From the IMG/VR virus record IMGVR_UViG_2923307698_000006: 48,288 nucleotides of DNA. One strand, given 5' to 3'. Source of the DNA: a virus. Lineage: Duplodnaviria; Heunggongvirae; Uroviricota; Caudoviricetes. Position 1 is the stretch's first letter. Each line of letters begins with the position of its first letter. Of this stretch, positions 42,001 through 48,000 are shown piece after piece. The position numbers are program-made.

Positions 42001-45000
42001 TTAGTTAACTCCTACTACCTCTTCCACAAACCATCACCTATTAGGTTGCGCCCAAATTATTAGGCATAGCCTATTGACAAGTAATTAGGCATTTCCTATA
42101 GTTTTCCCATACCAACCCATCCCGTCCCACACAATACAGGGCAATACCTCGAGTTACCAGGCAGTGGTCACGGGTTAAGTAGCCAGCCCGAGGCGTAAGA
42201 ACATGACGGCAGGGTTCAACTTTAATAACTATGCAGCAGGTTTTTGTTCCGCTACCCCGGCGTTAAGGGGAAATGAGGTCAGCATGGATACTATCGATCT
42301 TGGCAACAGCGAATCTCTGGTATGTGGCGTGTTCCCCAACCAGTACGGTACGTTCACCGCAATGACGTATACCAAAAGCAAAACGTTTAAAACCGAATCT
42401 GGAGCGCGTCGCTGGCTGGAAAGAAATTCAGGTGGGTGATATGGATTTCGACACAATCATGGAAAAGGCTTACGAAGAATACTTCGAAGGCCTTGCCGAA
42501 GGCGAAGAAGCTCACAGCTTCAACGAATTTAAACAGGTGCTTTCCAGTTCGGCAAAATCTAATGGCTGATAAGCGAAACAGCACCGCGAGGAATCAGTAT
42601 GCAGAAACGAGAACCCGTCATCATCGCGCCAGACTATACCAATGATGAACTTTATGAGTGGATGCACCAGAAAATTAATGCAGCGCAGGATCTGAAATGG
42701 GCTAATGAAGTCAGGGCTAAGCAGGCTGAAAATCTGTCCTCTCTGGAGCAGGATATCACCAATCTGGAAAAAGCAGCGGCATTAACCATTGCCAGAATGA
42801 TTACATACCCGCGTTAATAGCTAACCAACGAAGCTAAGGTTGGTAATTAAGGAGTTCTCCACGGGTGAGGTGGAGTGCTTGCGCCGGACACGGGTGAGCA
42901 TCCGGCACTGACAGTTTACTGAAAGGATATTTCCCTGAAAAGTCAGACCATAACGCGAAAGCGCACGGCGAGGTAGCTGGTTCATAGATAGCCTGTCGTT
43001 AAATTTTCGTCGACCGTGCGCTTCCGGTTGTGGCAATCCGCGAAATGGCGCGGCGGTAAGTATGGCGGGGTTATTCCTTCCCCCGTTGAGGACACCGGGT
43101 TGTCAGGTTGACCATACGCTTAAGTGACAACCCCGCTGCAACGCCCTCTGTTATCAATTTTCTGGTGACGTTTGGCGGTATCAGTTTTACTCCGTGACTG
43201 CTCTGCCGCCCTTTTTAAAGTGAATTTTGTGATGCGGTGAATGCGGCTAAGCGCACGCGGAACAGTTAAAACCAAAAACAGTGTTATGGGTGGATTCTCT
43301 GTATCCGGCGTTAATTGTTAACTGGTTAACGTCACCTGGAGGCACCAGGCACTGCATCACAAAATTCATTGTTGAGGACGCGATAATGGAAACGTTATTA
43401 CCAAACGTTAATACGTCTGAAGGTTGTTTTGAAATTGGTGTCACTATCAGTAACCCTGTATTTACTGAAGATGCCATTAACAAGAGAAAACACGAACGGG
43501 AGCTATTAAATAAAATATGCATTCTTTCAATGCTGGCCCGTTTACGTCCGATACAAAAAGGATGCTGGCAATGAATACAGCATTTGCACTTGTTCTGACA
43601 GTTTTTCTTGTTTCCGGAGAGCCAGTTGATATTGCAGTCAGTGTTCACAGGACAATGCAGGAGTGTGTAACTGCAGCAACCGAACAGAAAATTCCCGGTA
43701 ACTGTTACCCGGTCGATAAAGTTATTCACCAGGATAATAACGAAATCCCGGCAGGTCTTTAAAACAGTTCCGTAATAAACATCCGATTTCATTCTTATAT
43801 GCCAGCAATGGCAGGGATTTGTTCACCCTTAAATCTGTAATGAGGTAAAACAAAATGAGTAAAGTCTTTATTTGCGCCGCCATTCCGGACGAACAGGCAA
43901 TAAAGGAAGAAGGTGCAGTCGCTGTAGCCACAGCTATTGAAGCTGGCGACGAACGCCGTGCTCGAGCAAAATTTCACTGGCAATTCCTGGAACATTATCC
44001 GGCTGCTCAGGACTGCGCTTATAAATTTATTATCTGCGAGGATAAACCTGGCATACCCCGCCCTGCCCTCGATTCATGGGATGCTGAATATATGCAGGAA
44101 AACCGCTGGGATGAGGAGTCTGCTTCCTTTGTTCCGGTTGAGACTGAATCAGATCCGATGAACGTCACTTTTGACAAGCTGGCCCCTGAAGTACAGAACG
44201 CTGTCATGGTTAAGTTCGACACATGTGAAAACATCACCGTTGATATGGTTATTAGCGCACAGGAATTGTTGCAGGAAGACATGGCAACATTCGACGGACA
44301 TATCGTTGAAGCGTTGATGAAAATGCCAGAAGTTAACGCCATGTATCCGGAGCTTAAGCTGCATGCCATCGGGTGGGTTAAGCATAAATGTAAGCCTGGT
44401 GCCAAATGGCCCGAAATTCAGGCAGAGATGCGCATCTGGAAAAAACGTCGCGAAGGTGAACGCAAGGAAACCGGAAAATACACGTCTGTTGTTGATCTCG
44501 CCCGCGCCAGAACCAATCAACAGCACACTGAAAATTCAACAGGAAAAATCAGCCCGGTCATTGCTGCCATTCATCGCGAATACAAGCAGACATGGAAAAC
44601 ACTGGATGACGAACTGGCCTACGCTCTCTGGCCTGGTGATGTGGATGCCGGAAACATTGACGGCAGCATCCATCGCTGGGCAAAAAATGAAGTTATCGAC
44701 AACGACCGCGAAGACTGGAAGCGTATCTCGGCATCAATGCGCAAACAGCCTGATGCCCTTCGCTACGACCGCCAGACTATTTTTGGCCTTGTCCGTGAAC
44801 GTCCGATCGACATTCACAAAGACCCTGTGGCACTGAACAAATACATTACTGAATACCTGACTACAAAGGGCGTGTTTGAAGATGAAGGAACAAATCAGAG
44901 CGCAACTGATACTCTCTCGTCGCCAGTACCAGAAACTGATGCAGTGGAAACGGCAATTCCGGACAACGAAAAAACCGAATGCAAAGTGGAAGTCGAACCA

Positions 45001-48000
45001 TCTGTAGAGCGTGAGGGGCCGTTCTACTTCCTCTTCACCGACAAGGATGGCGAAAAATACGGTCGCGCAAACAAACTTTCTGGTCTGGATAAGGCACTGG
45101 CTGCCGGGGCTACTGAAATCACGAAAGAAGAATATTTCGCCCGCAAAAACAGTACATACTCAGGTTCACAACAAAATACTGGTGCATCTGACACGACCGC
45201 ACAACCAGAGCCGGTAAAAGTTACCGCTGACGAAGTAAACAAAATTATGCAGGCAGCCAATATCAGCCAGCCTGACGCCGATAAGTTGCTTGCTGCCTCT
45301 CGCGGAGAATTTGTTGCAGGGATTAGCGACCCGAATGATCCGAAATGGGTTAAGGGGATCCAGACCCGCGATTCTGTAAACCAGAACCAGCATGAATCGG
45401 AACGGAACTACCAAAAAGCGGAACAAAACAGCCCAAATGCGTTACAAAACGAGCCAGAAACGAAACAGCCTGAACCAGTGGCGCAACAGGAAGTGGAAAA
45501 AGTCTGCACCGCCTGCGGTCAGACCGGCGGCGGCAACTGCCCTGATTGTGGCGCAGTGATGGGCGACGCAACATACCAGGAAACATTCGATGAAGAGTAT
45601 CAGGTTGAAGTTCAGGAAGATGATCCGGAGAAAATGGAAGGCGCTGAACATCCACACAAGGAGAACACTGGCGGCAATCAGCATCACGATAGCGATAATG
45701 AAACTGGCGAGACGGCAGATCACTCAATTAAGGTGAACGGTCATCAAGAAATCACATCCACCAGCAGGACGTGTGACCATCTAATGATCGACCTTGAAAC
45801 CATGGGAAAAAATCCTGATGCCCCGATCATCTCAATAGGTGCAATATTTTTCGATCCGCAAACCGGAGATATGGGACCGGAATTTAGTAAGACTATCGAT
45901 CTGGAAACTGCTGGCGGAGTCATTGATCGGGACACCATTAAATGGTGGCTTAAGCAATCACGCGAAGCGCAGTCTGCCATTATGACCGATGAAATCCCGT
46001 TAGATGATGCACTGTTACAATTGCGGGAATTTATCGACGAAAACTCCGGTGAATTTTTTGTTCAGGTCTGGGGAAATGGAGCCAACTTCGACAACACGAT
46101 TTTGCGCCGTTCATACGAACGGCAGGGGATCCCCTGCCCGTGGCGTTACTACAACGATCGCGATGTACGCACAATCGTTGAGCTGGGGAAAGCCATAGAC
46201 TTCGATGCCAGAACGGCTATTCCATTCGAAGGTGAGCGCCATAATGCACTTGATGACGCCCGTTACCAGGCAAAATACGTTTCAGTTATCTGGCAAAAAC
46301 TGATCCCGAGTCAGGCTGATTTTTAATGTTCAACCGTCGCCAGTTGTCGTTGATATTCTGCAACTGGCGCGTTCCGGAGTGATAGCCATGAGCGAACAGT
46401 ACCTGATAACGCTCGACGAGTGGAAACCAAAACGGTTCAGTCTCCCAATAACAAACACTACCCTGGTGAAATACGGAAAACTAGGATACATCGTTCCAAG
46501 ACCACAAAAAATTCGTGGGCGTTGGCTGATAGATCGCCGAGCAGTATTTGTTGGGCCTGGTGAAACGGGAATTGCGCCGGAAATTCATACTGGCGATGAT
46601 GATGCACTGAAGGAGATTTTAACTCATGTCACCGAGGCCACGAAAAAACAGCACTGACGTAGCCGGTCTTTACGAAAAGTTTGATCGCAGAACTGGCAGA
46701 GTTTACTACCAGTATAAAAATCCTGTGACTGGAAAATTTCACGGACTCGGAACAGACAAAGGTAAGGCAGAAAAAATCGCTTCCACAGCCAATCAGCGGA
46801 TAGCTGCAGCAGAAGCTGAATATTTCATGCGCAAAATTGATGAAAGTCCGTCAGCAACAAAACGTCGGGGTATCAGATTAAAGGCATGGGTTGATCGATA
46901 TCTGAAAATACAGGACACGCGACTGAAAAATGGAGATATTGCAGCTACAACTCACAAAGAAAAAGCCCGAATGGCTGCATACCTGGTTTCCCGTCTGGGA
47001 AACCACCCATTGAAAGAACTGGAAGTAAGAGACTTTGCATTAATACTGGATGAGTGGCTGGATAAAGACATGGTCAGCACAGCGAGAGTAAATCGTGGAT
47101 TATGGGTTGATATTTATAAAGAAGCACAGCATGCAGGGGAAGTTCCTCCTGGATGGAATCCTCCGGAGGCTACCCGTAAACCGATCCCTAAAGTAACTAG
47201 AGCCAGGCTCACCCTGGAAGACTGGCAAAAAATTTACAACGCAACGCCTGAAAAACACTTTATCCGTAACGCAATGCTTCTTGCGATTGTTACTGGTCAG
47301 CGCCGTGATGACATTTGCCACATGCGTTTTTCAGATGTGTGGAACGAACACTTGCATATCACCCAGGGAAAAACCGGAATGCGTCTGGCGTTACCGCTTA
47401 CACTACGCTGTGATGCCATTGGGATAACGTTAAAAGAAGTTATTGATGGGTGCCGAGACAGAATATTAAGTCCATATCTAATCCATAGTCGGCACCAGAA
47501 ACAACCAAAGCCGATGAGTAAAGACAACCTGAGCGACTACTTTGCCAAAGCACGGGATCTGGCTGGGATAACTCCACCAGCAGGAAAAACTCCGCCAACA
47601 TTTCATGAACAACGCTCCCTGTCAGAACGACTGTACCGCGCGCAGGGTATTGATACAAAAACATTACTGGGACATAAAGTCCAGGCAACCACCGATCGTT
47701 ATAACGATACTCGTGGTCAGGAATGGGTTAAATTGGTTGTTTGACGAAATAAATGCAGCTGAAAAATGTTGATATTGCTTTGCTAGTGTAAAAACCCCGG
47801 CATCAACCGGGGTTCGGAGACTAATCTTGATCAGGTTCCTGCTTAGAATAATGTTTTCCAACAATAAATGCCGTAACCAATGCAACAAGATCTATTGAAA
47901 CGAGAGTTCCGGCAAGAACTGTCTCCCCCATGACGCCAAAGACAGTGGCAGCTAAGATGATCAATATTGCCAACCAAAAAGCCTTTGTTTGACCATCTCT

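Follow-up and report, generated by a model that had tools for sequence, protein, structure and literature searches.

The DNA analysed here is IMG/VR virus record IMGVR_UViG_2923307698_000006, a stretch of 48,288 nucleotides assigned to the Caudoviricetes. The whole of it is referred to below as the window, and it corresponds to a lambdoid prophage adjoining potC. Near the end of the window lies a gene whose 823-residue product joins a scaffold related to that of RecE, the recombination exonuclease of the Rac prophage of Escherichia coli K-12, to an exonuclease domain of a different kind. This gene, its relatives and its probable role are the subject of this report. It is an uninterrupted open reading frame (ORF) at 43855..46326 on the plus strand, with an ATG start and 823 codons, and the ORF list of the window places it exactly where an earlier, sequence-only reading of the same DNA had put it. 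In RefSeq the same protein is named 'exonuclease' (WP_000048412.1), in the genome of a Shiga-toxigenic strain that is 100% identical here. The last 6.9 kb of the window (41400-48288) are found at 100% identity in Shiga-toxigenic E. coli, for instance in strain 2015C-3163. The gene and its surroundings are as follows.

42074..42102, plus strand: promoter-like site TTGACA-17-TATAGT on the 3′ side of racR, which probably serves as the early-left promoter (11 of 12 consensus matches in a scan).
43160..43211, plus strand: DicF small RNA (sRNA), upstream in the exonuclease operon (Rfam RF00039, 76.7 bits against a gathering score of 48).
43386-43574, plus strand: dicB, immediately upstream gene (RefSeq).
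43571-43762, plus strand: ydfD (DUF1482), immediately upstream gene (RefSeq).
43855..46326, plus strand: exonuclease gene, encoding a mosaic protein of the RecE/YdfE family with a C-terminal DEDDh exonuclease (ORF list, RefSeq, PHROG 2082).
46388-46657, plus strand: excisionase gene, immediately downstream of the exonuclease gene (RefSeq, ORF list).
46626-47744, plus strand: integrase gene, after the excisionase (RefSeq, ORF list).

Starting from racR, the promoter-like site is followed by DUF1391, ydfC, dicF, dicB and ydfD, with the exonuclease gene last. The site would be the early-left promoter by its consensus match, and the same scan found no promoter-like site directly 5′ of the exonuclease gene. 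Phages Tritos and 813R8 keep the order dicB-ydfD-exonuclease, as do the Qin prophage of K-12 and 73 of 80 related IMG/VR loci. The gene had been described as occupying the position of recE in Rac, directly upstream of xis and int. It does lie in the recE slot of the early-left operon, but the comparison with Rac does not extend to the downstream side, where recT, ralR and rcbA stand between recE and the integration genes.

The protein itself is made up of the following parts, given with their codons in the window.

43855..44874, plus strand: N-terminal folded region of YdfE_N/YdfE_C type, residues 1-340 (alpha/beta at 1-100; helical at 105-205 and 245-340).
45016..45150, plus strand: small beta-beta-alpha domain between disordered linkers, residues 388-432 (AlphaFold2 predicted local distance difference test score above 90 for residues 390-430).
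45271..45357, plus strand: family-wide conserved motif, residues 473-501, with core L478-V499, LLAASRGEFVAGISDPNDPKWV (alignment across C-terminal classes).
45505..45549, plus strand: Cys4 zinc ribbon C551-x2-C554-x7-C562-x2-C565, residues 551-565 (cysteine positions; identical CxxC...CxxC block in K-12 RecE).
45550..45777, plus strand: acidic low-complexity linker, residues 566-641 (net charge down to -11 per 30 residues; the alignment with RecE stops at residue 625).
45778..46293, plus strand: DEDDh 3′-5′ exonuclease domain of the Rv2179c-like/T4 DexA family, residues 642-813 (Pfam PF16473, PDB 8KEL).

The assignment of the C-terminal domain is clear. Residues 642-813 match Pfam PF16473, the Rv2179c-like 3′-5′ exoribonuclease domain, with an E value of 2.3e-67 and 226.6 bits against a cutoff of 27, and cover profile positions 2-177 of 177; there is also a weak Pfam match to RNase_T. 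The sole solved relative by sequence is T4 DexA (exonuclease A; PDB 8KEL, E value 1.6e-6), and no RecE nuclease entry was matched in the PDB sequence search. DexA, which is likewise phage-encoded, is a stand-alone protein of 227 residues with extra loops, whereas the related domain forms the C-terminal fifth of the 823-residue protein; the two are about 26% identical. The DEDDh set is complete, with D646 and E648 (DLE), D746 (FD) and H796-x4-D801, and these residues are invariant in an alignment with DexA and stand-alone phage homologues. They are also kept in diverged fused relatives of less than 60% identity. The fold of the DnaQ/DEDD superfamily predicts 3′-5′ polarity, which is also that of DexA and is the opposite of that of the 5′-3′ exonuclease of a SynExo recombinase. 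The whole protein is matched end to end (823/823) by PHROG 2082, 'exonuclease'.

Upstream of this domain, the protein resembles RecE. Residues 262-625 are homologous by BLAST to residues 278-591 of K-12 RecE, zinc ribbon included, with 25% identity in residues 262-375 and 68% in residues 474-625 (RecE 454-591), the latter spanning the conserved motif, the ribbon and the acidic linker. No BLAST match to K-12 RecE was found for the N- and C-terminal parts, residues 630-823 among them, and the homology stops at RecE residue 591, where the crystallised PD-(D/E)XK nuclease domain starts. The NCBIfam equivalog model for RecE (NF007259) also covers residues 246-625 only, corresponding to model positions 271-602 of 877, and scores 284.5 bits against a cutoff of 1269. 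At the other end, residues 1-256 share 97% identity with ydfE, a pseudogene of the K-12 Qin prophage, and both YdfE_N (PF27430) and YdfE_C (PF27432) are assigned, in precomputed annotation, to P0237, the representative of a cluster with 99% identity. By these alignments the protein is a mosaic member of the RecE/YdfE family, in which, relative to RecE, the catalytic module has been exchanged and the N-terminal module is a different one.

RecE (exonuclease VIII) has another catalytic domain. It is a PD-(D/E)XK 5′-3′ exonuclease of double-stranded DNA (nuclease at about residues 600-866, DUF3799-like), in contrast to the DEDDh 3′-5′ type found here; its N terminus is of Exonuc_VIII type, unlike the YdfE-type first 260 residues of the window protein; and recT follows it in K-12. 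What the two have in common is the far-end slot of the early-left operon in a Rac/Qin-type prophage, a similar size (866 against 823 residues), the homologous middle with the motif LAASRGEFVxGISDPNDPKWV, the Cys4 ribbon and the acidic linker, and a long N-terminal part, which a review describes for RecE as a region of unknown function (PMC11611040). These comparisons bear on several claims of the sequence-only reading. It had recognised a DEDDh nuclease by its DLE, FD and H-x4-D motifs and had held that the fold was not that of RecE, and on both points it was right. It had also pointed to a zinc ribbon in the middle of the protein, which is indeed there but is no novelty, because K-12 RecE has the same ribbon. 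Its suggestion of a different class of early nuclease applies to the catalytic fold, but not to the protein as a whole, whose middle region is homologous to that of RecE.

The relation to ydfE is closer still. In K-12, ydfE (Qin; 5079-5999 of locus L003) comprises the first 256 codons of the exonuclease gene, cut there by IS2E, and its upstream genes, ydfC-dicF-dicB-ydfD, are the same as those in the window. The window shows the intact form of ydfE before its disruption, and K-12 lacks an intact DexA-type exonuclease such as most E. coli strains have. For annotation, this means that K-12 ydfE may be read as the IS2-truncated N terminus of this exonuclease.

No partner for recombination was found. 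There is no annealase in the RefSeq annotation of the whole prophage or in a PHROG scan of ten early genes, tblastn of K-12 RecT against the window gave a best E value of 0.4, and RecT occurs in none of the 80 related IMG/VR loci within the available sequence. SynExo recombinases are marked by an adjacent annealase gene (RecT/Red-beta, Erf or Rad52/Sak); in the window, xis and int stand in that place. As had been noted from the sequence, then, no annealase gene follows. That a PD-(D/E)XK nuclease or an annealase was overlooked was ruled out by Pfam, the RefSeq annotation, BLAST, the PHROG scan and tblastn.

For the scaffold, residues 1-629 were searched against 1.84 billion representative proteins, which gave only 250 relatives, and 49 representatives of at least 450 residues were mapped with segments of the window protein and of RecE; a search with the full-length protein gave relatives of at least 90% identity only, so that the diverse ones come from the representative search. 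YdfE-type or Exonuc_VIII-type N termini, a common middle and several C termini occur in all combinations among the 49 representatives. For instance, P0242 combines a DEDDh C terminus with the N terminus of K-12 RecE. The C-terminal classes are DEDDh (n = 7), RecE-type PD-(D/E)XK (n = 11), a third domain of about 300 residues (n = 14) and a fourth tail (n = 2-3). The third is Rad52/Erf-like by fold comparison, while nothing was returned for it by the PDB sequence search or Pfam. The fourth, PHROG 26058, is seen in P0240 (from about residue 450) and P0362 (from about residue 383), and has neither a Pfam match nor similarity to the other three classes.

Within the common middle, the motif LAA(A/S)RGE(F/Y)VxGISDPxDPKW, of about 22 residues (478-499), is near-invariant in the DEDDh, PD-(D/E)XK and Rad52-like classes and in K-12 RecE, and is surrounded by sequence that is otherwise disordered and acidic. 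In the form LAASRGEFVxGISDPxDPKWV it is a candidate partner-binding motif. The small beta-beta-alpha domain (strands 390-396 and 399-405 and helix 408-416 in the AlphaFold2 model) is also shared to some extent, as its 'GPFYFL' segment aligns in the annealase-fused relative P0243.

The C-terminal module goes together with the gene that follows it. Besides the window, nine DEDDh loci were examined individually (L005, L006, L008, L009, L012, L094, L095, L096 and L097), and the arrangements observed are listed here.

DEDDh type, followed directly by xis/int, no RecT: the window; phages Tritos and 813R8; two E. coli prophages at other attachment sites; a Rac-like prophage (P0242).
DEDDh type, relatives of at most 60% identity, followed directly by xis/int, no RecT: P0239, P0255 (two contigs), P0357.
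DEDDh type, no RecT within the available sequence: 80 IMG/VR loci, of which 77 extend 1 kb or more past the gene.
PD-(D/E)XK type, followed by a RecT-family gene that overlaps or begins a few bases past the stop: K-12; P0245 (Pfam RecT, E value 2e-36) and P0312, at loci L011 and L099.
PD-(D/E)XK type, followed by a 271-residue protein (L098:6565-7380), PHROG 3657 of unknown function: P0361.
Rad52/Erf annealase fusion, followed by a Sipho_Gp157/'Mu Gam-like end protection' protein: P0243, P0253.

The missing annealase is therefore a consistent property of the DEDDh form and not an accident of the window prophage. Since no annealase adjoins the gene in 90 DEDDh loci, whereas RecT directly follows three of the four PD-(D/E)XK relatives, the DEDDh form seems not to need one. 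The association of PD-(D/E)XK with RecT holds in three of four cases because the 271-residue neighbour of P0361 is not RecT-like by BLAST; as it lies in the annealase position, it may be an unrecognised annealase.

The DEDDh domain also occurs by itself. Stand-alone versions of about 180-190 residues, 60-87% identical, are found among 'ea'-type accessory genes, for instance in Stx phage 1720a-02 (L004:5998-6570) and in many enterobacterial prophages. The protein from 1720a-02 (AGR48394.1), like its counterparts of about 190 residues in lambdoid, P22-like and other phages, is 60% identical to residues 641-821 and has the same catalytic residues, but it lacks the scaffold and is encoded outside the recE slot. 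Because such copies occur in other lambdoid phages, the domain must circulate both free and fused.

As regards how often it occurs, the gene is unremarkable. Of 5426 complete E. coli genomes, 3532 contain it at full length (at least 80% coverage), and the DEDDh-coding segment is found in 4047 genomes of this set, at 8107 places and in up to seven copies per genome; depending on which of the two is counted, 65-75% of the genomes carry it. The source genome alone holds the exonuclease gene at six places. The block of recE nuclease and recT known from K-12 is rarer (1728 genomes, 1841 places), and in the recE slot of E. coli no other gene is as common as the DEDDh one. One outcome that the sequence-only reading had named as counting against it is thus half borne out: the protein is a typical, very widespread prophage exonuclease, but no RecT partner had been missed. 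A single protein cluster at 90% identity has 23,183 member sequences, and the ORF of 823-824 residues is intact in thousands of genomes.

The sequence is also maintained by selection. By the Nei-Gojobori method, the ratio of nonsynonymous to synonymous substitution rates (dN/dS) against two full-length YdfE-type relatives is 0.10-0.30 in each of the four segments and 0.16-0.25 when the gene is taken as a whole; wherever the sequences compared have the same type of segment, it is 0.08-0.30. Purifying selection thus acts on all four. Between segments dS ranges from 0.02 to 0.6 for the two relatives, a spread that is a signature of mosaic recombination.

The prophage around the gene may be less well preserved. 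In the near-identical RefSeq genome, whose coordinates are about one base off in places, the portal gene is annotated as frameshifted (window 19320-21904) and a TerB-family gene has an internal stop (window 33130-33492). Because of these two lesions the prophage may be defective, with the exonuclease gene intact.

The reading favoured here, with a probability of roughly 0.55, is that the protein is an annealase-independent 3′-5′ exonuclease of DNA ends, carried on a RecE/YdfE scaffold and made early after induction. Its production on induction or infection is probable because the gene is the last of a repressor-controlled early-left operon, ahead of xis and int. The enzyme would be metal-dependent and would strip nucleotides from DNA 3′ ends, as is expected from what is known of the DEDD superfamily and of DexA. 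DNA is the more probable substrate because the only characterised phage member of the family is a DNase and because the domain replaces a DNase on a scaffold that otherwise carries DNA-recombination modules. This RecE-type scaffold would bring the exonuclease to the target of RecE, which is probably the DNA end or a protein attached to it. The outcome would be an enzyme that trims or degrades ends without an annealase, instead of one half of a RecET-type recombinase. In effect, it is unlikely to work as a SynExo recombinase, because 3′-5′ polarity would destroy the 3′ tails on which an annealase loads and because there is no annealase gene. As for the benefit, it may lie in the processing of the phage's own ends or RecA-dependent recombination, in the destruction of competitor DNA, or in the salvage of host DNA or nucleotides, as for DexA. 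Recombination, anti-defence and host DNA degradation, the roles put forward in the sequence-only reading, are guesses.

Several points weigh against this reading. Literature searches aimed at it found no biochemical or genetic study of this protein or of any fused relative. Rv2179c, the founding member of the Pfam family, is an exoribonuclease, so that RNA is a possible substrate too. Targeting by the scaffold is a guess from the sharing of the scaffold, because fold comparison gave no informative match for the N-terminal 460 residues. To our knowledge, no part in the recombination of lambdoid phages has been established for a 3′-5′ exonuclease. Early-left expression is suggested by the consensus match of the promoter-like site. 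Finally, most E. coli genomes have the gene in intact form, in many cases probably within a defective prophage, and a role that benefits the host, such as defence, fits this at least as well as one in phage replication.

The modular family suggests a broader idea, which is offered as a possibility with the odds against it. The N-terminal and middle parts of RecE and YdfE might constitute a general adaptor that, through the invariant motif and the folded domains, delivers interchangeable effectors to one common cellular or phage target. The effectors would be a 5′-3′ exonuclease, a 3′-5′ exonuclease, a Rad52/Erf-type annealase and at least one further domain. If this were true, the DEDDh allele, the commonest in E. 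coli, would act outside annealase-coupled recombination, for example by destroying the ends of host DNA or of the DNA of rival phages, and would represent a new functional class of phage end-processing protein.

Among the alternatives to an early, annealase-independent exonuclease, the one that survives best is a nuclease of prophage defence or superinfection exclusion, although it is rather unlikely. Here the DexA-type domain would degrade the DNA of competitors, for example T-even phages with modified cytosines, while the scaffold would target or regulate it. The domain is of the same Pfam family as T4 DexA, and there is an experimental precedent in E. coli: EcD ('HREX'; HAK9828821.1), a stand-alone DexA homologue with the catalytic residues kept, is reported to digest DNA containing 5-hydroxymethylcytosine (5hmC), to spare unmodified double-stranded DNA and, expressed from a plasmid, to protect against T4 (PMC12153337, 2025). 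DexA homologues are reported to be absent from K-12 (PMC12153337), which agrees with the K-12 copy being cut by IS2. Purifying selection and the prevalence of the gene (65-75% of E. coli genomes; a single genome can have as many as seven copies of the DEDDh segment) also speak for defence. A further precedent is found in a 2026 preprint, in which ISG20-like DEDDh exonucleases of prophages, with variable auxiliary domains, are reported to defend against RNA phages (PMC13344964). These TONDO exonucleases resemble the window protein in combining DEDDh with a variable auxiliary domain and in their location on prophages or plasmids, but, set apart here by their description, they belong to another DEDDh subfamily (chosen by ISG20 homology and below 500 residues) and act on the 3′ untranslated regions of RNA phages.

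Nevertheless, EcD is a different, stand-alone protein, likened here by its description and by its termini rather than its full sequence. Its primers give a start MIDTET and an end TIPETY, neither of which occurs among 120 matches to the C-terminal domain, and a 20-mer from the reverse primer has one chance match in IMG/VR. There is no clear conservation of the residues proposed for 5hmC recognition: W152 of DexA corresponds to Y766, so that an aromatic residue is preserved, and D169 to A780, in a poorly aligned loop. Residue D90 of the DexA tetramer, which is Ala in EcD, aligns with D718, followed by an invariant A719, with an uncertain register of the helix. PADLOC-DB v2 gave no match to a defence-system protein family at E values up to 0.01. 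In addition, the gene is the last in an early operon under repression and lacks a promoter-like site of its own, so it is possibly silent in the lysogen, and two kinds of recombination protein, RecE and the annealase fusions, share the scaffold.

That sharing is the starting point of a second alternative, in which the protein is after all a recombination exonuclease that relies on an annealase provided in trans from a second prophage, or on the host RecA/RecFOR proteins, much as T4 DexA trims 3′ ends in intron homing, a role cited for DexA (PMC12153337). The scaffold common to RecE and the Rad52-type annealase fusions, the operon position, which is that of recE/exo, and the RusA junction resolvase annotated by RefSeq in the same prophage are all consistent with it. 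A source in trans is conceivable, as host genomes hold several lambdoid prophages and the source genome of the window has this gene at six places. By contrast, the expected 3′-5′ polarity would strip the very 3′ tails that RecT, Red-beta and RecA use, and the absence of an adjoining annealase in all 90 DEDDh loci, set against RecT directly after three of four PD-(D/E)XK relatives, makes such a function decidedly doubtful.

An exonuclease of RNA is improbable. Its substrates, trimmed or degraded once the prophage is induced, would be RNAs of host or phage, or short oligoribonucleotides. In favour of this, the best Pfam model is called 'Rv2179c-like 3′-5′ exoribonuclease domain', and NCBI calls many copies '3′-5′ exoribonuclease'. 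The weak RNase_T match and the action of the prophage ISG20-like DEDDh enzymes on RNA 3′ ends point in the same direction. However, T4 DexA, the only characterised phage member of the family and the only PDB sequence match, is a DNA exonuclease, and the domain takes the place of a DNA exonuclease on a scaffold whose other fusions are to DNA-recombination modules.

That the gene is a decaying, functionless remnant of recE, as the K-12 pseudogene and the damaged portal and TerB-family genes might suggest, can be dismissed, being contradicted by intact ORFs of 823-824 residues in thousands of genomes and a cluster of 23,183 members, by dN/dS values of 0.1-0.3 in all four segments, and by catalytic residues kept in relatives of less than 60% identity.

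RecET is a mainstay of recombineering. One natural scaffold carries at least three different C-terminal modules, and the annealase-free DexA-type version is the most frequent in E. coli (found in 4047 genomes, while the block of recE nuclease and recT is found in 1728). The sole effect reported for the first 600 or so residues of RecE is that the full-length protein improves linear-linear recombination (PMC11611040). The family gives an experimental handle on this part of the protein, through module swaps, mutation of the motif and a search for a common partner. The results also bear on the anti-T4 defence function claimed in 2025 for DexA homologues of E. coli (PMC12153337). The E. coli copies of the DexA-type domain found here lie in prophages, and such copies may form much of the Escherichia set of that study.

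Part of this picture was already available: the gene is annotated as 'exonuclease', it belongs to PHROG 2082, and YdfE_N and YdfE_C are included in newer Pfam releases. In the literature searched, including the topics of ydfE, Rv2179c together with phage, and dicB/ydfD, no functional study of this gene was found, and the exchange of the RecE module, the strict coupling of the C-terminal module to the gene next to it, and the annealase fusions on the same scaffold appear to be undescribed there.

Some further features of the prophage can be mentioned. Its left end (window 1-4487) contains, according to the annotation of the near-identical genome, the type III effector genes espN, which is cut by the window edge, and nleL. 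Rfam sRNAs of the prophage include AgvB (anti-GcvB), STnc100, STnc490 and the sok antitoxin RNA beside hokD, and Rfam sRNA sites lie at 30121-30182 (plus strand), 30184-30376 (minus strand), 14259-14382 (minus strand) and 36581-36755 (minus strand). Finally, the one-base offset relative to NZ_CP027219.1 arises within window 39640-40631, where it alters the predicted start region of an O-like replication protein; the ORF in the window spans 39647-40624, and the RefSeq coding sequence 39648-40610.

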